From: Bacteroidota bacterium
Lineage (GTDB): Bacteria; Bacteroidota; Bacteroidia; Bacteroidales; WCHB1-69
NCBI GenBank assembly: GCA_029570835.1
Contig: JAKPTX010000128.1
Span: 1-11,666, forward strand
Reading direction: 5' to 3'
Length of the DNA stretch: 11,666 nucleotides
The translations under genes and the position numbers were made by a program. A model generated the notes under the pieces. That model ran no database searches, was not told the origin of the DNA, and saw only the letters and a program-made list of their open reading frames with translations. The number at the start of each line of letters is the position of its first letter. Within the stretch, counting starts at the first letter, position 1. Positions 1 through 11,666 of this stretch are shown piece after piece.

Positions 1-95
1 CGTTTTCAAACAAAAAAGCCACGCCAATAGTCGCATGTAGTCAAAAGCCGCATGCTAATCTTTTAATGTGTCTAAAAAAGAATTATAAACAAGAG

Positions 96-112
96 GTGCT
101 GTAAATCAGCAC
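96..112. other. Small perfect hairpin gtgctg-taaat-cagcac (6-bp stem, 5-nt loop) distal to the GmrSD-like gene and element C3. It could help terminate the minus-strand transcript, but no immediate U-run follows.
   Basis: Read directly: gtgctg at 96-101 and cagcac at 107-112 are exact reverse complements. The T-run on the minus strand begins about 15 nt beyond the stem. Confidence 0.2.
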
Positions 113-138
113 TCCACAACTAAATTATTTTCGAATGA

Positions 139-230
139 AACGTTTGGCATTTCGAAGTGGTTTCCTATCAAGTTACAACTACTTTTGATACGAGCTAAAA
201 CGCTCGATAAACCACTGACCGCCAAATGTT
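139..230. repeat. C3, a shorter and diverged third copy of the structured element family (compare 2497-2605 and 3811-3919). Its conserved core is enclosed by its own two-part closing stem, and it sits 36 nt beyond the 3' end of the minus-strand GmrSD-like gene.
   Basis: The core segment tttcctatcaagttaca (161-177) is identical to C1 2527-2543, and accactga (211-218) matches C1 2577-2584 with similar spacing. The outer stem is aacgtttggc (139-148) with gccaaatgtt (221-230), 10 bp with one G-T wobble. The inner stem is agtggtt (155-161) with aaccact (210-216). An internal hairpin is cgagc-taaaac-gctcg (191-206). Confidence 0.4.
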
Positions 231-265
231 TTATATACGATGTTAGAGCCATGTGCATTATTTTC

Positions 266-1993
266 TTAGAAGTTTTCAAGTATAAATTTCACTATTTTTT
301 CTTTACGCAGACTGATTTTTTCTTTGTCCCAAATTTCCGATTCCACTGTCATTTTTTGAATTTCTCGTTGTTGTCCAAGATGATTATACGAACTTCTTTT
401 CTCGCTAAATGGTCTGTTCCCTACAGAACAATTGTGAGATTTTGAAAGAAGCAAATAATTTCCTAAACAGTCAATGTATTGGTTTCTAAATTCTTCATCA
501 TACTCACAATAACCTGCTGCAATTGGTTCTCCATTTGTTGGTGTTTGTGGTGCGATATGTTCTAATTCAGGACTTTCTATATTGTCAAAACGAGTCAAAG
601 AATAACCGTTTTTTCCTTGGTTTTCAGGATGATTTTCGTATTTCCAAAGTAAAAATTTGGCAGTTGCATGATGCATTCCGCCTTGTATTGATTTCTCAAA
701 TTCAGTCGTATTCCAATAAGCCCACCACCAATCAGTTGTGTTTTTCATCCAAACAATTCTATCAATTATGGGCTTTAAGTCTGGTTGTTCTGCTTTAAAT
801 TCTTGGTAAACACCATTTATTCTTGAAGTCATTTCTGCTCTTGTTCCAATAAGTCTATGGCGCAAAACCAATGATTCCATTGATGAACAAATCTTGCAGA
901 TTTCTTTTGTTTGTAGTCCGAAAGTATATGCTTTAATAACAAATGGGATTGCTATTGCAAAACCACCTAAAGTAATAATTGAATGAATCTCGATGTTTTC
1001 TCGTTCATCTTTCCCGAAGAATGTAGTCAAATGCTCAAAACTTACTGCAAGCGAATTTGTAAATGATTTGATAAAAGGAATTGGATTGCTTTCTGATAAT
1101 AGTTTATTGATTTTATCAATTGCATTTGATTCCCAAAGTGAATTGAAATGAACCCGCAAAGTGTAAACTAAAACATCATCTTCGTCTATTTTGTATTCAA
1201 TCGAAGATATTGATTTATAAATTTTTTCAAAGCGGTTTTTTATTTCTTCAATCAAACTGTCTTTTTCTTCACCACCGTACAGGTGAACATTGAACATGAA
1301 TTGGGCTTTAATAATTTCCAAATTTGAAGGCTTTTTCCCTCGATTGTTCTGGAAAATGAACATCTGAATTGCCTCTGATTCATTTTTTACGGGATGAGTA
1401 GTACAAGTTGCCTCGCTAACTGTTTTTAGCATTTTTATCAAAAACTGTTCGTCTTTATCTGCAAACGATTTTGAAAAAAAATCAAATGCTTTTACAATTC
1501 TTCTTGCTGATTCAGTTTCAATACCGTTTTTGTCTTTTTTTGTTTGATTTAAAACATAATCAATAAACAACTGTTTGTCATAATCTACAGTAGCAAATGT
1601 GTAATTAGACCCCAACTTAACCATACTTTTATAAAGAAAATCTTGCTCCTCCGTTAGAGTTCTTAATTCTTTCAGTCTCGTAAATAAAGCTGAAAGGAAG
1701 ATAATAATAGTGGTTAATCTTTGTTGCCCGTCAATTACACCAAAATTCCTACCCCCTTTTTCTTCAAAAAGGAAATGCCCGAAATAATAGGGACTTTCAA
1801 CTAAACTACGGTTATAATCAATTAAATCTTGAAGAAACACATCTGTATGTGTTTTTGTGTTTTTATTTTTATCATCTGATGGGGTTTCCCAAGAATAAGC
1901 ACGTTGATATGCAGGAACAAATATTTTGTTTCCTGCCAACATATTATTTATCGTTGTTGATGGTTCCATAAAATTATTGTCATTTTTTTGCAA
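266..1993 (-). CDS. GmrSD-family protein: an N-terminal DUF262 (ParB-like NTPase) domain fused to a C-terminal DUF1524 (His-Me/HNH-like nuclease) domain. Likely a type IV (modification-dependent) restriction endonuclease or BrxU/SspE-like defence nuclease. The ORF opens with TTG at 1993, and the first ATG (at 1969, residue 9) is the more plausible start.
   Basis: The translated ORF has the DUF262 hallmarks FVPAYQRAYSWE and VIDGQQRLTT near the N-terminus. The DUF1524 hallmarks ELEHIAPQ and GNYLLLSKSHN lie near the C-terminus. The long ORF is AT-rich with an A-rich leader. Confidence 0.8.
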   Translation of the reverse strand: MQKNDNNFMEPSTTINNMLAGNKIFVPAYQRAYSWETPSDDKNKNTKTHTDVFLQDLIDYNRSLVESPYYFGHFLFEEKGGRNFGVIDGQQRLTTIIIFLSALFTRLKELRTLTEEQDFLYKSMVKLGSNYTFATVDYDKQLFIDYVLNQTKKDKNGIETESARRIVKAFDFFSKSFADKDEQFLIKMLKTVSEATCTTHPVKNESEAIQMFIFQNNRGKKPSNLEIIKAQFMFNVHLYGGEEKDSLIEEIKNRFEKIYKSISSIEYKIDEDDVLVYTLRVHFNSLWESNAIDKINKLLSESNPIPFIKSFTNSLAVSFEHLTTFFGKDERENIEIHSIITLGGFAIAIPFVIKAYTFGLQTKEICKICSSMESLVLRHRLIGTRAEMTSRINGVYQEFKAEQPDLKPIIDRIVWMKNTTDWWWAYWNTTEFEKSIQGGMHHATAKFLLWKYENHPENQGKNGYSLTRFDNIESPELEHIAPQTPTNGEPIAAGYCEYDEEFRNQYIDCLGNYLLLSKSHNCSVGNRPFSEKRSSYNHLGQQREIQKMTVESEIWDKEKISLRKEKIVKFILENF

Positions 1994-2005
1994 TTTAAAA
2001 ATAGT

Positions 2006-2030
2006 ATGGTGGTGGCTACGCCACCACCAT
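2006..2030. terminator. Strong GC-rich hairpin (11-bp perfect stem atggtggtggc / gccaccaccat, loop tac) flanked by T-runs on both strands. It is a bidirectional rho-independent terminator sitting between the 102-aa gene and the GmrSD-like gene.
   Basis: Read directly: 2006-2016 is the exact reverse complement of 2020-2030. On the plus strand it is followed by ttttgttatt. On the minus strand it is followed by actattttt. Confidence 0.6.
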
Positions 2031-2038
2031 TTTTGTTA

Positions 2039-2347
2039 TTATCCAGCTCTTTCACTCAACTTTTTGAATGTTTTATCATATGTTCCTATCCAACTTCCCT
2101 TTTTGAAAATTATAGTAGAACCAGAAGCATTACGAAAGTCGCCAAGTGAAGAAACAGCAGCATCTTTAATTTTTTTGCCTGTTTCGTCATATGTACTATA
2201 CCAACTTCCTTTTACAAAAACGATAAAATCACTACCGATACCACAAAGGTCTCCAACTGATGAAGCTGCAATATCTTTAATTTTCTTACCATTACCGTCA
2301 AAAACTGTGTACCAGCTACCTTTTAATTGAACGTCTGAAATTGCCAT
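2039..2347 (-). CDS. Small protein built from three tandem copies of a roughly 36-aa repeat (KGSW-Y/I-x-x-YD-x-x-GKKI...). It resembles WG/KWG-type beta-repeat proteins, and its function is unknown.
   Basis: The ATG at 2345-2347 was confirmed and the leader is A-rich. The repeat KGSWYTVFDGNGKKIKD / KGSWYSTYDETGKKIKD / KGSWIGTYDKTFKKL is visible in the translation. It is also visible as a 108-bp DNA periodicity. Confidence 0.6.
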   Translation of the reverse strand: MAISDVQLKGSWYTVFDGNGKKIKDIAASSVGDLCGIGSDFIVFVKGSWYSTYDETGKKIKDAAVSSLGDFRNASGSTIIFKKGSWIGTYDKTFKKLSERAG

Positions 2348-2408
2348 ATTATCAATTTTTATTTTTTCGCCTACTCTGATTAGTTTTCGGCTTCCCTAAT
2401 TTAAATTT

Positions 2409-2416
2409 CAAAAATA
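2409..2416 (-). promoter_or_regulatory. Candidate Bacteroidota-type -7 promoter element (TATTTTTG on the minus strand, matching TAnnTTTG) about 60 nt upstream of the 102-aa gene start.
   Basis: The plus-strand sequence caaaaata at 2409-2416 is the reverse complement of TATTTTTG. A TTTG lies upstream on the minus strand, but the spacing is shorter than the usual 19-21 nt. Confidence 0.25.
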
Positions 2417-2444
2417 TGTCAAGCCTAAGTCAAAGTATGTCGTT

Positions 2445-2492
2445 GTCTCAAAATCTGTCTGTGTGTCTTTTTTCTTTGCATTGGCTCTAACG
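2445..2492. repeat. TGTC-rich, T-run containing segment (gtatgtcgttgtctcaaaatctgtctgtgtgtcttttttctttgcattggc). It is a direct repeat of the segment at 11604-11660 and directly abuts element C1.
   Basis: By eye, the two segments align as gtatgtcgt / tgtc / tgtc / tgtctttttt / ttgg. The repeat runs in the same orientation about 9.2 kb apart. Confidence 0.4.
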
Positions 2493-2496
2493 GTTG

Positions 2497-2605
2497 ACAA
2501 TATGGCCAGTAAGGGATTGCGGGCGATTTCCTATCAAGTTACACGAGAAGTTGAAGCGGGCTACAACCCTTCGCATACCACTGAAACCCTTATTGGCTAT
2601 ATTGT
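2497..2605. repeat. C1, a 109-nt structured element. A 19-bp closing stem (acaatatggccagtaaggg / cccttattggctatattgt, two G-T wobbles) encloses a 71-nt core conserved with C2. It is a candidate structured ncRNA or structure-specific DNA site.
   Basis: The 5' arm 2497-2515 pairs with the 3' arm 2587-2605. The core shares agtaagggattgcggg, tttcct-tcaa, tacac-gaag, ttga-gcggg and taccactgaaacccttattg with the copy at 3811-3919. The flank aacggttga is shared. Confidence 0.55.
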
Positions 2606-2630
2606 GTGTTGGCGGTTCGTTGTTTCTTTC

Positions 2631-2960
2631 CTAATTCTTTAAGATAAAACTATTTTTCTTATCTGTTAATGAATGTTTTGGGTTTAAAGAACTTTGTATA
2701 TCTGAAATCAATTCATCAATGTTTGAGATTGATTTTCTACGTGCATTATTCCAATCCCAAGTATTGCTATCAATATATTCAGTAATCTCAATTAAATTAT
2801 AATTTGTATTGAAATCATAACTTTTGCACCAGTCATTCCTATAATTATTTATACAAAACAGCCAAAGCATTCCGTCATTCTTAATCATGTAGGATTCGGT
2901 ATTTATACCTGTAAGTCCAAATATCTTAGAAAGTCTATCCTTAATTTCATTTATTTTCAT
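2631..2960 (-). CDS. Hypothetical 109-aa protein, Asn/Trp-rich with no recognisable domain. It is the second gene of a two-gene AT-rich cassette.
   Basis: The ATG at 2958-2960 was confirmed. It lies 18 nt downstream of the 251-aa ORF on the same strand, and the stop lies 10 nt from the outer stem of C1 (25 nt from the C1 3' arm). Confidence 0.5.
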   Translation of the reverse strand: MKINEIKDRLSKIFGLTGINTESYMIKNDGMLWLFCINNYRNDWCKSYDFNTNYNLIEITEYIDSNTWDWNNARRKSISNIDELISDIQSSLNPKHSLTDKKNSFILKN

Positions 2961-2978
2961 AACAATACCTTTTTATTT

Positions 2979-3734
2979 TTAGTTTTTTATCACAGAAATT
3001 ATAGCCTCATGAACCTTATTATTGCTTTCTAGTAATTGAATTAAATTACAAGATGAAAGAGAATTCGTGTCCGAAAAAGAATTGTATCGCCAATATTCAA
3101 ACTGATGACTCATTAGCCACTTTTCGTTCTTAAATATATCCAATAATTCAGATGGTATATTTTCTGAAAATGCAAAAACCTTCAGACTCTCAATAATTTC
3201 ATCACAAATCTTCTTGGGTTTGTCGGAATCATAATCATCAGACTTAGGAACATTATCCTTGTAATGTTTCAATTTTTCGATATTAGATTTTAACAAATCC
3301 ACTAACTTTACAATTGCATCTTTGTCAATACTTGACATAGAATTATCTGTTAAAGAACTCTTTATGTAATCTTTTATTTTGTTCTTGATTGAATCTTGTT
3401 CGTTTCCTGAAATCACTATTTGATAATCAATTGTTTTCTTTGCATCAGATTTTTGAATTAATTTTGAATTATGTCCTCTACGGCAATTATCAAGCGTTTC
3501 ATCTGGATTAAAGAATGAAACATATACCTCTATTGGGCTATCTTGATTACCTGCCCATGATTGTGAGAAGTAATTATCTAATTTTTGAAACAATCCAGTA
3601 ATGCTTTTTGCTTTAATATTATGCTCTATTGCAAAATTAATTACTCTATAATCAGGGAAATCGTAATCCCCCTCAATAAGTTTTGTGGTTACTTCACCAC
3701 CAATCAAATTTAATTCAAATTGTGAGTTTTTCAT
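2979..3734 (-). CDS. Hypothetical 251-aa protein, Lys/Asn/Asp-rich and apparently soluble, with no recognisable motif. It is the first gene of the AT-rich two-gene cassette between elements C2 and C1.
   Basis: The ATG at 3732-3734 was confirmed. The ORF is long and uninterrupted, and element C2 ends 77 nt upstream of it. Confidence 0.55.
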   Translation of the reverse strand: MKNSQFELNLIGGEVTTKLIEGDYDFPDYRVINFAIEHNIKAKSITGLFQKLDNYFSQSWAGNQDSPIEVYVSFFNPDETLDNCRRGHNSKLIQKSDAKKTIDYQIVISGNEQDSIKNKIKDYIKSSLTDNSMSSIDKDAIVKLVDLLKSNIEKLKHYKDNVPKSDDYDSDKPKKICDEIIESLKVFAFSENIPSELLDIFKNEKWLMSHQFEYWRYNSFSDTNSLSSCNLIQLLESNNKVHEAIISVIKN

Positions 3735-3810
3735 TTTAGTACCTTCTATTTTAAAGATTAAACATGAGTTTCCTACTAGTTTCTGGTTTTACAATGACCG
3801 CCAACGGTTG

Positions 3811-3919
3811 AGTGTAGCAGCAGTAAGGGATTGCGGGTTACTTTCCTGTCAAAATACACCGAAGTTTGAGCGGGGCAGAATGCTTGATTTACCACTGAAA
3901 CCCTTATTGCTGCTACACT
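3811..3919. repeat. C2, a 109-nt structured element of identical length to C1. An 18-19 bp closing stem (gtgtagcagcagtaaggg / cccttattgctgctacac) differs in sequence from the C1 stem but preserves pairing.
   Basis: The 5' arm 3812-3829 pairs with the 3' arm 3901-3918, and the pair 3811/3919 extends the stem. There is one G-T wobble at the same position as in C1. The inner stem agtaaggg/cccttatt and the 71-nt core are conserved. Confidence 0.55.
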
Positions 3920-4062
3920 TTGTTACCAACTGGCCTTCTTTCTTGTCAAGCGATACACCTTTTTGTTTATCAACTATTTCTATCATTTCGTTTTGTCTGT
4001 CGGATAGTGTATCAGCAAAGTTTTATTTTTTAAGTGGGATATTTCTTGTTTTTTTCGGGTGG

Positions 4063-4134
4063 GCAAAGCAAGCTCTTTTGCAAACTTTGGTTTGCGGGTT
4101 GGCTTTGAGCGGTTTGCAAATGTGCTTGCTTTGC
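4063..4134. repeat. Long imperfect inverted repeat (gcaaagcaagc-tcttt-tgcaaac ... gtttgca-aatgt-gcttgctttgc). A 26-nt loop between the arms carries ttgcgggtt and tttgagcgg, motifs also found in the C2 core. It lies immediately 3' of the 324-aa gene and is not followed by a U-run on the gene strand.
   Basis: 11 bp plus 7 bp of exact complementarity are separated by a 5-nt mismatch bubble. The 9-mers ttgcgggtt (4091-4099 versus 3831-3839) and tttgagcgg (4104-4112 versus 3865-3873) recur. Confidence 0.4.
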
Positions 4135-4147
4135 GTCCGGGTTCATA

Positions 4148-5122
4148 TTAGTTAAACTTTCCTGTGATTTGTGAAATATCAAATTTGCCGTCAATGTTTT
4201 GAATTTCGATTTTTCCATTCAGAATATCGAAGAAGAAATCGCGAATACGGTCGAAGGTCAAAATGGCGGGCTTTCCGTCTTTTCCAATACCAATATCGTA
4301 AGTTTTCAGCAGTTGTAAACCGAGCGAGGCAGCTGTCAAAAGAAAATGATTTTGAAACTTATCGGTATCCAACAAGTCGGCTGCCAACACTTTACCTATT
4401 ACAGTGTAACTGCGCAACGTTTTCTGAATTTCCTCATTGGTGAGCGTAGTTTTTACCTCATCGGTAGTAATATTCATTTCAATTTTACCTGAATTTTGTG
4501 CCTGTGGAAGTCCTTTGTAAAGTGCGCCCAAGTCAGCCAAACTCAAATTGTAAAGCCTTGCATCGGCGGTAGCAATCATCGGCTCAATTGAAAACGCACT
4601 CGGCAAAAGCAAGGAAATACTGCCTTCTACCCGCACCGACGGCGTGTTGAACGTGCCGACAAGGCTGTTTTTGAGGTCGATTTGCTGCGTAGCAAACACA
4701 CCGCCAACCACTATACTGTTTTCCAACACGACATCATCTGCATAAATGCTGCCCGCCACAAAAGCATTGTAAAGCGCTACACTCTTGGCGTTTATATCGG
4801 AATGGAAAACGAGTTTGGCGTTTTCTGCCCGCGAAACAAGGCTGTTTGCCGAGCCAACGCTCTTTTTGAACGCGATATTGCCTTTTGCCTCGCTGTTGAC
4901 ATAAAGTTCCAATTGCGTGAAAACAGCACCTTGAATTTCGAGGTCGCCGTTTTGGATTTCTAACTTGTGGGCATAAACCGGTCCTTCAACTACCGCATTG
5001 CCCTGCACTGTAATAGTGCGATTGAGTTCCGCGGCCTTTTCGGGCAAAATAGAGCCGCGCACCAGGTTGTCTTTCAATTGTATGTTGCTTTCGTTAAAAC
5101 GAAGTTCTTTTAACTCTTTCAT
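4148..5122 (-). CDS. A 324-aa protein with a bactofilin-like (DUF583-type) beta-helical repeat region at its N-terminus and a distinct C-terminal domain. It is the last gene of the six-gene operon.
   Basis: The ATG at 5120-5122 was confirmed. Residues about 35-175 show the alternating-hydrophobic pattern with Gly/Asn turns (VQGNAVVEGPVYAHKLEIQNGDLEIQGAVF...SIVVGGVFATQQIDL...SVRVEGSISLL), typical of bactofilin beta-helix rungs. Confidence 0.55.
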   Translation of the reverse strand: MKELKELRFNESNIQLKDNLVRGSILPEKAAELNRTITVQGNAVVEGPVYAHKLEIQNGDLEIQGAVFTQLELYVNSEAKGNIAFKKSVGSANSLVSRAENAKLVFHSDINAKSVALYNAFVAGSIYADDVVLENSIVVGGVFATQQIDLKNSLVGTFNTPSVRVEGSISLLLPSAFSIEPMIATADARLYNLSLADLGALYKGLPQAQNSGKIEMNITTDEVKTTLTNEEIQKTLRSYTVIGKVLAADLLDTDKFQNHFLLTAASLGLQLLKTYDIGIGKDGKPAILTFDRIRDFFFDILNGKIEIQNIDGKFDISQITGKFN

Positions 5123-5141
5123 TGTGATATTATTTTTATGA

Positions 5142-6176
5142 TTAAACTGATTTTATTGAGCTGAAATTTAGCATTTTAACAATATTTTCCCGCACACGAT
5201 TTGTGTGTGTATCGCCTGTGGAATAACGATTGCTGACTTCCGCGTTGAAATAACGCCCGATTTTCTCGGCATTGTCTTTGGGAAGGTTTCCCCAAGTTTT
5301 TGCCTGAAAATCAGAAATCATTTCGTTTGCCTGCATTTTTGGCAAAAAATCGGCTTGATACAGATTTTTGTCAATCTGACTTTTTTCGTTTTGCGTTTCG
5401 ATAAAGCAGACAGGCGAATAATGCACGGCTGCAACGCTCTCGTTCAGAACGGTTTGATTGATTGTGTCGTTCAAGCGTTTCTGTTTCACGAGAAAAGTAT
5501 TTGCCTTGCCGATAGTGTCAAACGCGCGTTTTTTGGCAATAGAGGCAGAAAGTCGCACCTGTAAATCGCCGCTCTCCGCGCCAAAAACGGCCACAGTACT
5601 TGCCAAATCGCCTGTCAAGGTGCGTCCTGCATGCTTGTCGCTCTGATTTTTGAAGACGAAAGCAGGCTTGTCCAATTCGTAAATACGGTTGGAAAGTTCG
5701 TTGTCCAAGTCCTCAAAAATTTTCAGGTAACGGCTAGAAATACGCTGATAGTCGCCTTGCATCTGCGTTTGTTTTTCCACACAACGTTTTGCCATTGAGT
5801 GCAGGTGTGCCAAATGGGAATCTAAACGGCTCGAAAGTTCTGCAATCTGCTGGCTGATTTCAGAGCGAATTGTTTTGAAAAAACCTTCTACAATGGTACT
5901 ACCCACTTTCTTTGCGTTGCTGTCGATAGATACAATTTGTGCCGTTTCGGTAGCAACGACTGCACCAGTGAGAACATTTACAGAATTGTTACAATTCGCT
6001 ACACTATTGTCGAAAGGAGTTGTTTCAACATCAATATTTACCTGTACATCTTCGTAAGCCGTACCGCTGTATGGTACACTTCCGCTATATGGTTTTCCAT
6101 CTACAGAACCAGAATAACTGACTCGACCCGAATAGTGAACTGCTATTTGTTTATGAAAACTTTGTCTATAACTCAT
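5142..6176 (-). CDS. Hypothetical 344-aa protein, mainly alpha-helical, a paralogue of the upstream 308-aa protein. It has a Ser/Gly/Tyr-rich N-terminus (YSGRVSYSGSVDGKPYSGSVPYSG).
   Basis: The ATG at 6174-6176 overlaps the TGA stop of the upstream gene (ATGA overlap). It shares GFFKTIRSEISQQIAEL...SSRYLKIF...ELDKP with the 308-aa ORF. Confidence 0.7.
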   Translation of the reverse strand: MSYRQSFHKQIAVHYSGRVSYSGSVDGKPYSGSVPYSGTAYEDVQVNIDVETTPFDNSVANCNNSVNVLTGAVVATETAQIVSIDSNAKKVGSTIVEGFFKTIRSEISQQIAELSSRLDSHLAHLHSMAKRCVEKQTQMQGDYQRISSRYLKIFEDLDNELSNRIYELDKPAFVFKNQSDKHAGRTLTGDLASTVAVFGAESGDLQVRLSASIAKKRAFDTIGKANTFLVKQKRLNDTINQTVLNESVAAVHYSPVCFIETQNEKSQIDKNLYQADFLPKMQANEMISDFQAKTWGNLPKDNAEKIGRYFNAEVSNRYSTGDTHTNRVRENIVKMLNFSSIKSV

Positions 6177-7099
6177 AATTGTTCGTTTTTAAGGGTTTGA
6201 AAATTATTAGCCATAAACAGTTTGTTAGCCATATCTTTTACCCGCTGCGAACTGCCCGAATTAGAAAGATATTTGCTGAACTCGCTTTTTACCTCCTTGT
6301 CGATTTCTTTTGACGGTTGCCACTCAATATTTTCAATATTGGAATTAACCGTGTTTTTAATGGTTGATTGAGTTTGTTTGCTCAACTGTGCATTATTTAA
6401 TTGAATATCAATATTTTTGCTGTCGAATTTATCAAAATTACACTCTAAAATTACCACAGGAACGGACAGGGTAGAATTTTCAACATTGCCTTTTTCAAGC
6501 AAAATTCTGTCAGTCAATTTTTTCTGTTCCGACATATCGGCAAGAAAGTTTGTCATTGAGTTGATAACTCTCAAACCTCGAAATTTTACATTCGAGGCAA
6601 TGATCTTCTGACTTGCCGCCAGCGATTCGAGTTGCGAAACAGGGACGGTTGCCGTCAGGTATTTTGTACGGTTAGATACCTTTTCCAATTCTTTAACTGC
6701 AAAATCGACAGTTGGTTTATCCAATTCAAAAATTCGCTGTTTCAGATTTTGATTCAATCCGTTGAAAAGTTTCAGATAACGAGAGGAAATCATATTATAG
6801 TCGCGTTCCATTCTGCCGCGTATTGCCAAAAGTTGCTTTTTTTGTGCGTTGAGCTGCATTAAATGCGAATCGACATCGCTTTGCAGTTTGGCTATTTTCT
6901 GCGAAATTTGAGAACGTATAAGCGTGTAAAAGCCTTTATTTACGTTGTCGCAAACGTGGTCGGCGGCTTTCTTTTCTGCCAAAACTACGGCAGTTTGCAT
7001 TGCTACAACCGCAGTTGTAGTCCCCTTGATATGATTGGACACTGAATGAATTTCCTGTGCCATCGGGTTGGTATCTACTACGCAATCTATATATGCCAT
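6173..7099 (-). CDS. Hypothetical 308-aa protein, mainly alpha-helical with a coiled-coil, the first of two tandem paralogues.
   Basis: The ATG at 7097-7099 lies 4 nt downstream of the 752-aa gene stop. It shares GFYTLIRSQISQKIAKL...SSRYLKLF...ELDKP with the 344-aa ORF. Confidence 0.7.
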   Translation of the reverse strand: MAYIDCVVDTNPMAQEIHSVSNHIKGTTTAVVAMQTAVVLAEKKAADHVCDNVNKGFYTLIRSQISQKIAKLQSDVDSHLMQLNAQKKQLLAIRGRMERDYNMISSRYLKLFNGLNQNLKQRIFELDKPTVDFAVKELEKVSNRTKYLTATVPVSQLESLAASQKIIASNVKFRGLRVINSMTNFLADMSEQKKLTDRILLEKGNVENSTLSVPVVILECNFDKFDSKNIDIQLNNAQLSKQTQSTIKNTVNSNIENIEWQPSKEIDKEVKSEFSKYLSNSGSSQRVKDMANKLFMANNFQTLKNEQL

Positions 7100-7103
7100 A
7101 ATC

Positions 7104-9362
7104 TTAAATTTTTATTTCGTTATCATTATCAAATTCGCCCTGATTTTCAAGAATATCATCGATTGCCTGCTCGCGATCGAATTCGTCTGCATCGTATTCC
7201 AAACCGAGTTCGTCAAGAATTTGCTGTAAAGACTCATCGTCCAAGTCGTTCAACTCATCTTTGGAATATTGATATTCTTCGGTTTCGTCATCCTCTTCTT
7301 GTTCTTCGTCTTCAGAAACTTCTTCCTCTTCTTCGTTGTCGTCTTCATCCTGTTCTTCGTCTTCAGAAAGTTCATCCTCTTGAATTTCGGAATCGTCTTC
7401 TGTAAGTTCTTCTTCGGAAATTACTGCCTGTTCTACAACAATTTCCTCATCTGCTTGCTCGTCCTCCGCCTCTTCGTTCAGGAGATTCCGACCTTCGTCG
7501 GAATAACCGTCGAATGGAGTTTCTTCTTCGCGTTCTTTCAGGTTTTCCAACGCATTTTTGGCAATAATCGGCAAATTGAGTGCGATATGCTCAAAAGTAA
7601 TGTCTTCTACATTGGGCGTAGGTGGCAATTCCGAAGATTTAGCAAACAGCGGATTAACCAAAGCCAAAGGCTTACGGCGGTCGTTGAGGTCACGTACTTC
7701 ATCGGCGGCAACTGCCACTTCATTGGAATACCCATCGCGAAGTTTTGCATCGTAATATTCGATATGTCCAAATTTATCGGCTTTCTGGTCAATATCTTCT
7801 TTGAGACGTTCCATATAATCTTCAAAATCCGATTGAGTCCGCTTAAATTCGTTTGACTGCATTTCGAATGCAATTAATGTTTCGGCAGCATTATCAACCA
7901 CATCAACAACGGTGCTGTCAAGGTTACCCTCCGACTGTACCATAGTATCTTCGGTGCGTTGCAACGAAACCAAGGTATTATAGGCAGCCACATATTCCTG
8001 CAAACTTTTTCCCATATCTCGAATAATATCAGCGGCTTCGGCACGGTTGCGACCATAAAAATCTTCGCAGTTTTCGTGCCAACGATTCAGATACTCAATT
8101 TTTTGGTCTTTGATATGATTGTAAATTTTAAGGCGTTCAATGCGGTTTTCAGCCATAAGATTTTGAACAACAGGTGTAACGATTTCCTCGTAAATCTGGT
8201 GTACGCCAAAAGGCAAATTGGTTGTGCTGCCATCTTCCGCCGTCCACATTCCCGAAACGAGATTATATTTTACCCGCGAACTCTGTTTGAGTTGGAAAGG
8301 CTCGTATCCCTGCACCGATTCGGTATAATCGAACTTCTCGTTGCGGATACGTTCGATTTCTTCGTGCTCCAAAAGCGGAGAATAGTGATTGTAAGGCGAT
8401 TTGAGAATTTGATACAAAACTTTGTTCGATTCAAAAATTATTTTATCGGTAGAAGCTACCTTCAAGGCAGAAATTGCTTGTACAGAATTTGCCATTGTGA
8501 TCATTAGCCCCTTCAAAACGTCCTCAAACTGTTGTGTTTTGTTCGACAATGAATCTTTTAACCTATTAAGTTCCTGAAATTTATTTACACTACCCGCATA
8601 TTTTTCCTTGTTGAAAACAGGAATAACCGGTGCGTTTTCAGGAATTTCCGTAGTCGCAAATTCATTTAGAAATTGTAGATATTCGCATTTATCGGCAACT
8701 AATGGTAACGATACCGAAGTGGTATCCAAGTCGTCCATACAGTAAGAAATGGTTCGCAGAGAGCGTTCCAATTTGCCGAAATAATCGTGCTGGTTGATTT
8801 CTTGAATAGAAGTAGAATACTCATCTGTTTCAATGGTTTCCGTGTCTTGCGAGGTTTCCACAATCGGAGCTTCCGACGACAAATTTTCAAGGTCAGCGAT
8901 TGTTTCAATGAGCAAATCGTTTTGCCGCGAAAGTTGCAATGTAATTTCCGACTCATTAACCTTGCCTGTGTAATCGACAATGAAACTTTTGTCTTCGTAC
9001 TTGATTTGATCGGCAATGGGAACATAAGCCACGCCCAACTTGCTCACTTTGTAGTCACGGAAAATCTCGCTATGCTGTTTTTTAAATTCGGCAATGCGCA
9101 TGTCTTTGTCCGCAATCTGTTTTCCCAACCCGCTTTTTTTTATGAAATACACAAAGAACAGAATGATTGTGAGAAACCAAACCCACAACTTGGAAATTTC
9201 TGCCTGCAACGCCGTTTTTTCTTCTTCGAGAACGGCAATTTGCTTTTCAATTCGTTCCTCTTCGGCAACGATTTTTTCAGCCGCCTGGCTGTAATAGTTG
9301 AACAATATCTTCGCCTGGTCTTGATAGACATTGTTCGATTCTGGAAAAATTTTACCTGTCAT
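7104..9362 (-). CDS. A 752-aa single-pass membrane protein. It has an N-terminal coiled-coil, one TM helix (LWVWFLTIILFFVYFI), a large central domain and a roughly 130-aa poly-acidic (Asp/Glu-rich) C-terminal tail with internal repeats.
   Basis: The ATG at 9360-9362 was confirmed and the ORF is long and uninterrupted. The tail reads SEDEEQDEDDNEEEEEVSEDEEQEEDDETEE, and the DNA shows a roughly 57-bp repeat at 7288-7382. Confidence 0.75.
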   Translation of the reverse strand: MTGKIFPESNNVYQDQAKILFNYYSQAAEKIVAEEERIEKQIAVLEEEKTALQAEISKLWVWFLTIILFFVYFIKKSGLGKQIADKDMRIAEFKKQHSEIFRDYKVSKLGVAYVPIADQIKYEDKSFIVDYTGKVNESEITLQLSRQNDLLIETIADLENLSSEAPIVETSQDTETIETDEYSTSIQEINQHDYFGKLERSLRTISYCMDDLDTTSVSLPLVADKCEYLQFLNEFATTEIPENAPVIPVFNKEKYAGSVNKFQELNRLKDSLSNKTQQFEDVLKGLMITMANSVQAISALKVASTDKIIFESNKVLYQILKSPYNHYSPLLEHEEIERIRNEKFDYTESVQGYEPFQLKQSSRVKYNLVSGMWTAEDGSTTNLPFGVHQIYEEIVTPVVQNLMAENRIERLKIYNHIKDQKIEYLNRWHENCEDFYGRNRAEAADIIRDMGKSLQEYVAAYNTLVSLQRTEDTMVQSEGNLDSTVVDVVDNAAETLIAFEMQSNEFKRTQSDFEDYMERLKEDIDQKADKFGHIEYYDAKLRDGYSNEVAVAADEVRDLNDRRKPLALVNPLFAKSSELPPTPNVEDITFEHIALNLPIIAKNALENLKEREEETPFDGYSDEGRNLLNEEAEDEQADEEIVVEQAVISEEELTEDDSEIQEDELSEDEEQDEDDNEEEEEVSEDEEQEEDDETEEYQYSKDELNDLDDESLQQILDELGLEYDADEFDREQAIDDILENQGEFDNDNEIKI
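7288..7382. repeat. Imperfect tandem repeat (about 57-bp period) inside the acidic-tail coding region of the 752-aa gene. It is a potential slippage or length-variation site.
   Basis: tcatcctcttcttgttcttcgtcttcagaaacttc (7288-7322) versus tcatcctgttcttcgtcttcagaaagttc (7345-7373). It encodes LSEDEEQDEDD / VSEDEEQEEDD. Confidence 0.5.
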
Positions 9363-9381
9363 GATTTTTATGATTTTAGAT

Positions 9382-10092
9382 TTAGTTTGAATAAATACTC
9401 TTTCTGATTTGATAAATTCTTTCTGCTTTTTTAAGATTGCTACCGATTGCCTCCTCGTTCATCGAATAATTGGAAATTGCAAACGCAATATCGTTGATAA
9501 CACGAATAAATTGCTGTTCCAAACCATGCGCCTCTGCATTTTCGGTTGGTGAAATAAACCGCAAGCTGTCTTCAAGTGTATTTATTTTGCGAATAAAATA
9601 TTCGGGCAAGTTCGGCAAATCGTTCATTTTGTCTTTCAAATCGCGTATTGCCGTTTTCATTTCATTAATACCGTTACGGTTAAATGTTTCCTGCTGATAC
9701 ACTTCCTGAACTTTGTTGCCTGAATGAATAACGGCAATAAAACCAAGCAGTAACAGAAAAAACAGTCCGCAATGAATGATAAACTGCAAAGCAAACGTCC
9801 ATTCGTAAGCAAGGTTTCCAATCAGCATTACAGCAATAGCGGTAATAGCGTAGAGCCAAGTGAAAAACCATCGTAAGCCAAGCGAACCGACTTTTTTACC
9901 CGATTTGTCGTTCAAATCAACCCAAGGAACAAGAATGTCGAGAAAAAGCAGTCCGTAAATGACAGACGAAACCACGATATTTAGCACGAGAATATCGGTT
10001 GCCAAACTGCCGCGAAACAGTAGAAACGCAGCAATAATAATTGCCTCTCCGCCAAGCAGCGCAATAAATGATAATATTTTCTTTGTATCCAT
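9382..10092 (-). CDS. A 236-aa integral membrane protein with four predicted TM helices in the N-terminal roughly 130 aa, followed by a roughly 100-aa soluble helical domain. No recognisable family.
   Basis: The ATG at 10090-10092 was confirmed. Four hydrophobic stretches (ILSFIALLGGEAIIIAAFLLF, LVLNIVVSSVIYGLLFLDILV, WFFTWLYAITAIAVMLIGNLAY, FALQFIIHCGLFFLLLLGFIAVI) are visible in the translation. Confidence 0.7.
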   Translation of the reverse strand: MDTKKILSFIALLGGEAIIIAAFLLFRGSLATDILVLNIVVSSVIYGLLFLDILVPWVDLNDKSGKKVGSLGLRWFFTWLYAITAIAVMLIGNLAYEWTFALQFIIHCGLFFLLLLGFIAVIHSGNKVQEVYQQETFNRNGINEMKTAIRDLKDKMNDLPNLPEYFIRKINTLEDSLRFISPTENAEAHGLEQQFIRVINDIAFAISNYSMNEEAIGSNLKKAERIYQIRKSIYSN

Positions 10093-10115
10093 AATTCGTA
10101 ATTTTTAATTCGTAA

Positions 10116-11381
10116 TTATCTCTTATTTCCACATTTTGGGCAAAATTTCACACTCGGAGGTAATGTTGTTCCGCAACGGCTACAACTGTCGCCGGAAGAA
10201 ACCTGTTTTCCGCAGTTTCCGCAGAAAGTTGCCCCAGCCACCATTGGAGCGTTGCAATGCGGACAGTTTCCGCCACCCGATTGTAACGGTGTTCCGCAAC
10301 TTACGCAACGTTTGGCGTTTTTATCATTGTCCGTTCCGCATTTTGGGCAAGGGTTGTATTCATCGCCACAATGCGGGCAAAATCGGGTTGTGCTGGGGAA
10401 CTTTTTGGCGCAGTTGGAACAATACACCATTTTAACCTGTTGTTGCTGCTCTTGATTAAAATTGCCGCCTTGCTGATTATTGCCGCCAAAATTAGGCTGA
10501 TTGAATTGTGGCTGCATCATTCCGCCACCAACAGCGCCGCTGCCACCCATTCCACCCATCATATTCATTGCCATCAGACCGCCAATAAGTCCGCCGTTGC
10601 CATTTCCAAAACCATCAACAGCATTGTTAGCGGTATTGAACATTTGTTCTTGTTGCCAAGTGTGCCCTGTAATTGACATCGACGCTTGCGTTGCAATGGC
10701 TTCCGCTACCTTTCTGCCTTCTTCTGTGGATTTATCAATATCAATCGTTGTAATATTAAATTGCAACAATTCCAAACCCAAGTTGTCCCAAAATGGATTT
10801 AGAACACCTTTTAAATATTCAGACAATTCGTCCAAATAAGCGGATAAATACTTAAAACCGACACGGTGTTTAATCACATATTGAGCAATTTGCGACTTGG
10901 TTTTTGTAGAAAATTCTCCGAAAAACTGATTAGTCAAATCATCCTGCGAAAATTCGGTTTTCGTGCCTACAGATTTTATCAGGAATTTTTCCGCATCATT
11001 GACTTTCAAACCATAACGCCCGCCTGCTACAAGCGGCAGTTGCGTATTGTAATCGGGGTCGTGTATCGGCATTTTGCTTACCGCCCAATCAATGCTGAAC
11101 GTTTGAATTTTGTTTACAAACCACACCTCCGCCGTAAACGGATTTTTCCCACCGAAAGGTATTCCGAACAGCGATCGCAAAATCGGCAAGTTTTCGGTGT
11201 TTAAGGTGTGTTTCCCCGGACCGAATTTACCTACAACCTGCCCTTTTGAGAACAATACCGCTTCTTGTGATTCCTGCACAACGAGTTGCGTGTAGGTACT
11301 CAAATTAGTTTCGGGGAAACGCCAAGCGTAAATGGTTTTACTCCCCTGCGGCGACCATCTGACTAAATCAATTATTGCCAT
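10116..11381 (-). CDS. SPFH/Band-7-like domain protein (YdjI / PF13421-type N-terminal domain) fused through a Gly/Met/Gln/Asn-rich low-complexity linker to four C-terminal zinc ribbons (8 CxxC pairs). It is the first gene of the operon.
   Basis: The ATG at 11379-11381 was confirmed. The N-terminus IIDLVRWSPQGSKTIYAWRFP...LVVQESQEAVLFSKGQVVGKFGPGKHTL...AEVWFVN matches the SPFH Band_7_1 family signature as I recall it. The C-terminus reads CSNC..CPHC, CPKC..CVSC, CPHC..CGNC, CSRC..CPKC. Confidence 0.75.
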   Translation of the reverse strand: MAIIDLVRWSPQGSKTIYAWRFPETNLSTYTQLVVQESQEAVLFSKGQVVGKFGPGKHTLNTENLPILRSLFGIPFGGKNPFTAEVWFVNKIQTFSIDWAVSKMPIHDPDYNTQLPLVAGGRYGLKVNDAEKFLIKSVGTKTEFSQDDLTNQFFGEFSTKTKSQIAQYVIKHRVGFKYLSAYLDELSEYLKGVLNPFWDNLGLELLQFNITTIDIDKSTEEGRKVAEAIATQASMSITGHTWQQEQMFNTANNAVDGFGNGNGGLIGGLMAMNMMGGMGGSGAVGGGMMQPQFNQPNFGGNNQQGGNFNQEQQQQVKMVYCSNCAKKFPSTTRFCPHCGDEYNPCPKCGTDNDKNAKRCVSCGTPLQSGGGNCPHCNAPMVAGATFCGNCGKQVSSGDSCSRCGTTLPPSVKFCPKCGNKR

Positions 11382-11500
11382 ATCTTTTTGATTTTAAAGT
11401 TTGTATTTATAAATTTACTCTTTTCGTGCGAAGGGAAAAATGGCTCTTTGACTTTTGCGAAGCGTTGACTTGTGTGTTGGGCAAAAGGTAATGTGCCATT
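11382..11500 (-). promoter_or_regulatory. Leader and promoter region of the six-gene operon. It has no Shine-Dalgarno sequence. A palindromic TAAATTTA (11410-11417) is a weak -7-like candidate. Direct repeats TTGACTT (11448-11454 and 11465-11471) and GCGAAG (11428-11433 and 11457-11462) are candidate regulator sites.
   Basis: The repeats were read directly from the sequence. No canonical TAnnTTTG or TTTG pair at correct spacing was found, so the exact promoter is unresolved. Confidence 0.3.
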
Positions 11501-11603
11501 TTCGTGGTGGTTTCTAAAAACAAAAAAAGCGGGTCGGTAAAAAATAAAACTTTATCGGGACGGCTGGTGTAGTAGGCAGTCATTCCGATTTGATTTTCTT
11601 CTT

Positions 11604-11660
11604 TGTCTTTGTATGTCGTCTTGTCAATTTTCATGTCGCTGTCTTTTTTTTAGGCTTGTT
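11604..11660. repeat. TGTC-rich, T-run containing segment (gtatgtcgtcttgtcaattttcatgtcgctgtcttttttttaggcttgttggtaac). It is a direct repeat of the segment at 2445-2492.
   Basis: The 9-mer gtatgtcgt is shared exactly. Four tgtc motifs are shared in register, as are tgtctttttt and the terminal ttgg...taac. In the other copy this segment is followed immediately by element C1. Confidence 0.4.
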
Positions 11661-11666
11661 GGTAAC

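Follow-up and report, generated by a model that had tools for sequence, protein, structure and literature searches.

The stretch of DNA analysed here, referred to as the window, covers positions 1 to 11,666 (11,666 nucleotides (nt), forward strand) of contig JAKPTX010000128.1 from a Bacteroidota bacterium (GTDB order Bacteroidales, WCHB1-69; assembly GCA_029570835.1). It carries three related long hairpins, C1, C2 and C3, on the + strand, and groups of genes on the - strand. From comparison with related loci, we propose that the three hairpins are very probably attC-type recombination sites, each ending a cassette of an integron-like array that is transcribed from the minus strand. The hairpins and the coding parts of the three cassettes (A, B and C), with their open reading frames (ORFs) and protein lengths in amino acids (aa), are the following.

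115..251, +: C3, a decayed attC-like site ending the GmrSD cassette (covariance-model match of 113 bits, E = 1e-27; alignment; fold); stem ~130-239, ORF-proximal GTT box 242-244 within GTTAGAGCC (242-250).
245..2488, -: coding part of cassette A, with a GmrSD-type restriction enzyme (266-1993) and a 102-aa protein (2039-2347).
2489..2610, +: C1, the attC-like site of cassette B (covariance-model match of 142.6 bits, fold, covariation); AAC 2489-2491, 5-nt spacer, stem 2497-2515 with 2587-2605, branched loop, 2-nt spacer, GTT 2608-2610.
2611..3802, -: coding part of cassette B, with a 109-aa ORF (2631-2960) and a 251-aa ORF (2979-3734).
3803..3924, +: C2, the attC-like site of cassette C (covariance-model match of 123 bits, inverted repeat); AAC 3803-3805, stem 3811-3829 with 3901-3919, GTT 3922-3924.
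3925..11666, -: coding part of cassette C, with seven main ORFs of 324, 344, 308, 752, 236, 421 and 75 aa.

C1 (2497-2605) and C2 (3811-3919) are homologous elements of 109 nt each, as the original prediction, made from the window alone, had described them. Folding closes each with a 19-bp stem, and their interiors are ~78-80% identical. The outer 10 bp of the stem are unrelated in sequence between C1 and C2 and self-complementary inside each copy, and the + strand contains two G·T pairs in C1 (stem positions 8 and 13) and one in C2 (position 13); both points had been noted before and hold. The core motif TTTCCTRTCAANNTACA occurs three times in the window, compared with 0.09 expected occurrences. 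The covariance-model search that had been proposed as a check was run, and it recovers exactly three copies in the window, all on the + strand (E = 1e-35, 2e-30 and 1e-27). The original prediction placed the stems correctly, but the functional unit reaches further, to the AAC boxes at 2489-2491 and 3803-3805 and to the GTT boxes at 2608-2610 and 3922-3924. The alternation of elements and genes also stood, but the distance of about 10 nt from the end of the neighbouring gene did not: C1 starts 25 nt away from the stop of gene 2631-2960, and for C2 the distance to the stop of gene 4148-5122 is 228 nt, because a palindrome at 4063-4134 separates the operon of cassette C from C2. This palindrome (23 nt, 91%) is terminator-like and closely follows the stop of the 324-aa gene. 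In C3, the AAC box on the cassette-distal side has changed to AAA (122-124), and the outer part of the 5′ arm has degenerated. The flank of C3, GTTAGAGCCATGTGCATTATTTTCTTA, is also present in a related locus (L106), where it adjoins a copy that has a consensus 5′ arm and AAC box.

Relatives were collected by scanning a pattern taken from C1, C2 and C3 over the GTDB species genomes, which gave at least 120 element-first loci (L numbers denote loci), and 105 element copies from these were aligned (alignment A2) as the basis of the covariation and mismatch counts. The invariance of TTTCCT.TCAA..TACA and of CCACTGA in this alignment is a product of the search pattern and no evidence for function, and the inner loop helices other than TCAA/TTGA were excluded from the structure model on account of their inconsistent alignment between subtypes. 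Covariation was tested with RNAalifold and with pair counts on the named structure, using column shuffles and slid partners as controls. Pairing cells make up 91.7%, compared with 75% in the column shuffles and ~40% with slid partners. Double compensatory changes were found in 16 of the 26 named pairs and in 12 of the 13 RNAalifold pairs, and the three main subtypes exchange entire stem segments (GTAAGGG/CCCTTAT, GTTTGGCA/TGCCAAAT and GTGCGGG/CCCGCAT). The fold, rather than the sequence, is under selection in these elements, a conclusion that the original prediction had drawn from the closing stems of C1 and C2. The covarying 19-bp stem is bracketed by AAC in 92-98 and by GTT in 93-98 of the 105 copies.

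On the + strand, a G·T pair occupies stem position 8 in 96 of the 105 copies and position 13 in 102, and over the whole stem there are 230 G·T cells and 21 C·A cells. The + strand fold is the more stable one in 84 copies. These counts bear out the earlier preference for the plus strand, which is antisense to the genes. In the two main subtypes the stem is continuous and without bulged bases, that is, the extrahelical G and T of canonical attC sites are lacking; subtype C has a single bulged T on the cassette-distal arm. Box and stem are separated by 5 nt on one arm and by 2 nt on the opposite arm. The G·T pairs are also found in divergent sites: the short site of L128 (~75 nt) and the divergent site of L133 retain them at positions 8 and 13, and the divergent site beside the window in L121 has, as read from its sequence, two G·T pairs with the same five-position spacing. 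The loops of these three sites are quite different. We also noticed two copies of different subtypes (L075 2452-2606 and L096 1919-2068) that carry a similar ~24-nt insertion (ACTnTTCTCACGACCnnAGGGAGT) directly after CCACTGA.

Strong covariation and + strand wobbles compatible with G·U pairing, in elements that stand directly after stop codons, are features that a structured RNA would share, either as a stabiliser or terminator in the 3′ untranslated region (UTR) on the mRNA strand or as an antisense small RNA on the + strand. We consider an RNA very unlikely. On the mRNA (minus) strand, the conserved wobbles are replaced by C·A clashes, and the cmscan search against Rfam that had been suggested earlier, run on the whole window at E ≤ 1, gave no family at C1, C2 or C3. 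Other sites in the same arrays have the stem geometry in common with these elements, but not the loop sequence. An RNA would, moreover, leave unexplained the complementary 9-mers, the exact AAC breakpoints of a 7.86-kb unit and the attI/recombinase platform, all of which are described below. Compared with the earlier reading of an unrecognised RNA family, attC-type sites fit better, and a discrete + strand RNA of ~110 nt is neither needed nor supported. Since we take the elements to be attC-type sites of a cassette array, the relevant fold is most likely that of single-stranded DNA rather than RNA.

In the circle formed by an integron cassette, the first bases pair with the inner box of the cassette's own attC. 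In the window, words of 8-9 nt pair across the gene segments and not across the elements. Cassette A lies between GTTAGAGCC (242-250, +) and the exact reverse complement of that word, GGCTCTAAC (2483-2491), and the 9-mer occurs nowhere else in the window. For cassette B, GTTGGCGG (2608-2615) pairs with CCGCCAAC (3798-3805), and for cassette C, GTTACCAA (3922-3929) pairs with TTGGTAAC (11659-11666), the last eight bases of the window. Complementary words placed around gene segments in this way are a signature of integron cassettes. The same rule is visible in the fetched loci: of 53 pairs of adjacent elements, 32 are complementary at all six variable positions, compared with 1.1% of random pairs. 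On the coding strand, the cassettes start with GTT, 6 nt and a CA..(T)TAAAA-like sequence (GTTGGCGGTCATTGTAAAAC, GTTACCAACAAGCCTAAAAAAAAGA and GTTAGAGCCAATGCAAAGAAAA; e.g. 2470-2491, 3784-3805 and 11642-11666), and this semi-conserved 5′ leader may belong to the recombination site or to a promoter.

The copies are co-oriented within every locus, and 36 loci contain 2-6 copies spaced 0.7-6.8 kb apart. A crude, generic scan for AAC...GTT hairpins catches only part of the divergent sites, and array sizes are for this reason under-estimated. In 149 of 154 cases the ORF next to the GTT box runs antisense to the element, its stop being a median of 13 nt away; next to the AAC box, the ORF has this orientation in 119 of 140 cases. 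The fixed orientation and the stop-proximal position of the elements indicate that each unit consists of one or more ORFs and one hairpin at the 3′ end, and with this architecture the + strand of the element corresponds to the integron bottom strand. An abundant intergenic palindrome of roughly 110-130 nt in many genomes might instead be a selfish repeat that spreads through intergenic regions, similar to miniature inverted-repeat transposable elements or repetitive extragenic palindromes. The fixed orientation relative to genes (149/154) argues against such a repeat, target-site duplications are absent, and the complementarity flanks gene segments rather than elements. In addition, the moving unit comprises genes plus one element, not the element alone, and no empty and filled site pair pointing to insertion of the ~120-nt element by itself was seen. 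We regard a selfish repeat as very unlikely and as the least probable of the alternatives.

Cassette mobility was seen in a context search on contigs that encode the SPFH protein of the window. The segment 3803-11666, containing C2 and the operon, was found at ~99-99.9% identity in four unrelated neighbourhoods (L121/122/123, L124, L125 and L126). In every context the similarity ends exactly at AAC triplets on both sides; in L124, L125 and L126 it begins at 3800-3803. Cassette C together with C2 is a single mobile unit of 7.86 kb. L121 is 99.85% identical to the window over the whole overlap, and a divergent attC-like site (L121_rc 11546-11677) begins at exactly the window's last base, as the boundary word TTGGTAAC had predicted. 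As the next site begins precisely where the window ends, the hairpin repeats probably break assemblies. The right-hand neighbour of cassette C is another divergent hairpin in L121 and L126 and a short hairpin in L125. In L124 it is an attI-like sequence followed by a recombinase gene that is truncated after ~15 codons (L124_rc 8059-8373); L124 is a decayed platform that still has cassette C in the first position. The earlier idea of DNA excision at the stems pointed in the right direction. The aligned contexts show, at the level of sequence, that cassettes bounded at AAC/GTT move between contexts and accumulate beside an attI and a recombinase gene. The basis for the attC identity is thus genetic (breakpoints at AAC/GTT, platform in relatives), not thermodynamic.

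The platform was found in related genomes. Among the 120 element-first loci listed, with 8 kb of DNA examined per locus, tblastn located an IntI1-like tyrosine recombinase (30-33% identity) in 12; the IntI1 query served as a probe only. In all 12 loci the recombinase gene lies upstream of the array, on either strand. In 11 of the 12, the boundary 9-mer of the first cassette (as reverse complement; an 8-mer in L050) is located between the first ORF and the recombinase gene, and beyond this word the sequence is unlike an element. A conserved attI was seen ~190 nt upstream of the recombinase ATG in six contexts and in diverged form in a seventh, L128; in L127 this region is masked by a run of N. 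In outline, the attI reads nnnnnnAAC-GTCTTATTTACG...ACATTCGTAAATA...TTTACGAATGTTT...ATG. Its parts follow in the order of a variable cassette end, AAC-GTCTTATTTACG(C/A)A, ACATTCGTA(A/T)ATA, AAC(A/T)TTCGTA and TTTACGAATGTTT, the last placed roughly 25-45 nt before the recombinase ATG, and the side opposite GTCTTATTTACG is variable cassette sequence. Homologues of one array recombinase gave 5793 matches at E ≤ 1e-30; the members are 280 aa long, and several carry the source name "site-specific tyrosine recombinase/integron integrase". In this recombinase-first search, four of six independent contexts have co-oriented attC-like sites on the expected side, and a fifth contig ends within the first cassette. 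A cassette in the Bacteroides heparinolyticus context encodes a reverse transcriptase and a trypsin/TPR protein.

The array recombinases resemble both IntI and XerA. Their best family is NF040815 (XerA-type, "tyrosine recombinase/integron integrase"), at or just above its cutoff, and the integron integrase family TIGR02249 matches in two separate stretches with at most 238 bits against a cutoff of 265. The L045 protein aligns with XerA (PDB 5HXY) without a gap through the region of the IntI insertion, which is its best full-length match (E = 2e-47). With VchIntIA (PDB 2A3V) it aligns in two parts (query 14-182 with IntI 13-179, and query 202-278 with IntI 242-318), and ~62 IntI residues are matched by 19 residues in the L045 protein, indicating that the IntI-specific insertion of roughly 45-60 residues, the I2 helix, is lacking. 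The VchIntIA alignment continues through the C-terminal IKSPLD tail, and the XerA alignment ends ~8 residues earlier. The absence of bulged bases in the sites matches the absence of I2 in the recombinase.

The AAC/GTT boxes, the cassette rule and the cassette mobility are classical integron features. The elements might therefore be ordinary attC sites that are served by a canonical, I2-bearing IntI encoded elsewhere, with the adjacent I2-less enzymes as Xer-like or transposon-linked bystanders. Canonical integrons are reported in Chlorobi, Ignavibacteriae and one Bacteroidetes genome (PMC9024848), and some recombinase adjacency is incidental, because an IS91-linked recombinase subtype adjoins elements in L120 and L124. 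This distinct tyrosine-recombinase subtype (L124, 799-2872; L120, 7050-7970), whose two members are 42% identical to each other, stands beside an attC-like element in each locus and is paired in L124 with an IS91-family Y2 transposase, which suggests that a second mobile element targets or rides on these arrays. However, IntI1 tblastn revealed no I2-bearing IntI in the 120 element loci, L121-L128, L130 and L132-L134, and all recombinase alignments lacked the insertion. The constant upstream position of the recombinase (12/12), the first-cassette boundary that abuts a conserved attI ~190 nt upstream of the gene, and sites that offer no extrahelical bases for I2 docking also argue against a canonical partner, which we consider unlikely.

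Having judged integron membership feature by feature against the definition of IntegronFinder and MacDonald 2006, we lean towards a non-canonical integron-like platform without I2: a functional, undescribed lineage whose hairpins would be marked by the two G·T mismatches. Several observations weigh against the proposed array and its platform. No recombinase (Pfam) and no attI were found in the window or in the near-identical 22-kb contig L121, and the platform is for this reason inferred from relatives; only ~10% of the element-first loci reach a recombinase within 8 kb. In 15 of the 105 copies the arms are chimeric and non-complementary, with at least 5 of the 19 stem positions unpaired. In the sites described here, the cassette-distal arm carries the longer spacer, the G of both G·T pairs and, in subtype C, the bulged T, whereas the extra bases of canonical attC sites reportedly lie on the ORF-proximal arm (work of MacDonald in 2006 and Bouvier in 2009). 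The chimeric-arm copies include L012, L073, L101, L046 and L055, whose arms come from different subtypes; they probably arose by homologous recombination within the shared loop core and would be dead sites.

With comparable, moderate confidence, we propose that the I2-less lineage is widespread in Bacteroidota (Bacteroides, Petrimonas and Marinilabiliales), in other members of the Fibrobacteres-Chlorobi-Bacteroidetes (FCB) group and in neighbouring phyla, and that it stores defence and accessory operons. The listed loci, at least 120 in number, are mostly from Bacteroidota. Further loci, on long contigs, belong to bins of Ignavibacteria, Chlorobiales, Leptospirales, Desulfobulbaceae and Neomarinimicrobiota; a few others, on short contigs from bins of other phyla, may have been misbinned. 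In the open full-text literature, neither such arrays nor an integron integrase without I2 were found described for Bacteroidota. Integron surveys portray Bacteroidetes as nearly free of integrons, and in the complete RefSeq genomes IntegronFinder 2.0 detected only one complete integron in this phylum (PMC9024848); a review merely lists Bacteroidota among the phyla in which integrons have been detected (PMC8618304).

In the mechanism that we propose, one strand of each site would fold into a long hairpin, most likely the + strand, which is the bottom strand and antisense to the genes, and the base of this hairpin would unite the conserved AAC box with the conserved GTT box. A tyrosine recombinase, presumably the IntI/XerA-like enzyme without the I2 insertion, would bind the folded + strand hairpin and cut at the cassette-distal AAC. 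The near-invariant G·T pairs at positions 8 and 13 may replace extrahelical bases as strand marks, since the other strand has C·A clashes in their place. A single strand would then be exchanged with attI or with another hairpin, and replication would resolve the junction, as happens in integrons and when XerCD integrates single-stranded CTXφ DNA. By this route, a cassette of genes and one hairpin could be excised as a circle or inserted at the attI beside the recombinase gene.

The sites and arrays have much in common with integron attC sites (59-base elements, VCR-type) and their cassettes. Both are imperfect palindromes in which structure is kept above sequence, with invariant AAC...GTT triplets at the hairpin base and a variable loop that is either short (~75 nt in L128) or long and branched, and in both the better-folding strand is antisense to the ORFs. 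There is one site per cassette, at its 3′ end, and the cassettes are co-oriented; each cassette starts with a sequence complementary to the inner box of the site it carries, and the crossover falls at the cassette-distal triplet. An attI adjoining the recombinase gene (here in related loci only) and defence genes among the cargo are further shared features. In contrast to IntI, the recombinase here lacks the IntI-specific I2 insertion, and the sites have G·T pairs at stem positions 8 and 13 instead of a bulged G or T. The spacer is asymmetric (5 versus 2 nt), its longer side being opposite to the arm of the canonical extra bases. The boundary words are at least 9 nt long compared with 7 in canonical cassettes, many cassettes are multi-gene operons of up to 7.9 kb, and the hosts are mainly Bacteroidota.

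A second comparison is with XerCD, an I2-less recombinase of the Xer type that, like the enzyme proposed here, acts on a single-stranded DNA hairpin in phages (CTXφ attP(+), integrative mobile elements exploiting Xer). In the case of CTXφ, XerCD is said to exchange one strand pair, which replication then resolves (Val et al. 2005). There, the 28-bp dif site of the chromosome is the target of a phage genome, whereas the arrays described here have a dedicated recombinase gene, their own attI and many cassettes. XerA (NF040815, PDB 5HXY) is the best full-length sequence match to the array recombinase, but XerA resolves chromosome dimers at dif and the gene here is found at cassette arrays beside attI.

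In integron integrases, the I2 helix is the part that docks extrahelical attC bases, and it is seen as the innovation from which these enzymes arose; a lack of transitional forms linking IntI to Xer-like ancestors has been noted, and the integration of folded single-stranded phage DNA by XerCD has been discussed in this connection (PMC7790495). The lineage proposed here would be a pre-I2 intermediate between Xer and IntI, the result of a later loss of I2 to which the sites adapted by co-evolution, or a cassette system that was invented independently. If it works, a cassette platform without I2 and without extrahelical bases would make the origin of integrons experimentally testable, and would reveal a second means by which tyrosine recombinases read DNA hairpins. 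If the arrays are real, Bacteroidota from gut, sediment and digesters would also contain a large, overlooked reservoir of such mobile cassettes, holding restriction enzymes, reverse-transcriptase systems and unknown operons, and escaping tools that demand the IntI-specific domain.

The cargo of the cassettes comprises the GmrSD enzyme in the window and, in relatives, restriction-modification enzymes and a reverse transcriptase with a trypsin-like protease. The GmrSD-type protein of cassette A contains the Pfam domains GmrSD_N and GmrSD_C; the PADLOC matches in this cassette are HEC-06 and Orf5. The neighbouring 102-aa protein (2039-2347, -) consists of three tandem repeats of ~37 aa (111-nt period) and has no family match. 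The two ORFs of cassette B matched nothing in Pfam or PADLOC. The operon of cassette C (4148-11634, -) encodes an SPFH protein with multiple zinc ribbons (421 aa), a bactofilin-like protein, an acidic 752-aa protein and four unknowns. When PADLOC was applied to all proteins of the window, the GmrSD-like protein was the sole match and none was obtained in the cassette C operon, which for this reason may be an uncharacterised defence or membrane system.

A phage collection gave no match, and among plasmids there were five partial matches with no annotated feature beneath them. On a 524-kb plasmid of Chondrinema litorale (NZ_CP111045.1, 302458-326561; L135), an unannotated element closes a run of ~15 small co-oriented ORFs, most of them hypothetical; in this region no recombinase was found and a second site is only weak. 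Similar partial matches were seen on Persicobacter plasmids. In the 5′ UTR of the 102-aa gene in cassette A, we also observed a near-threshold Rfam match to the DUF805b RNA (2368-2400, -; 33.1 bits compared with a gathering score of 35.6, E = 3e-6), which is the sole near match of the cmscan.

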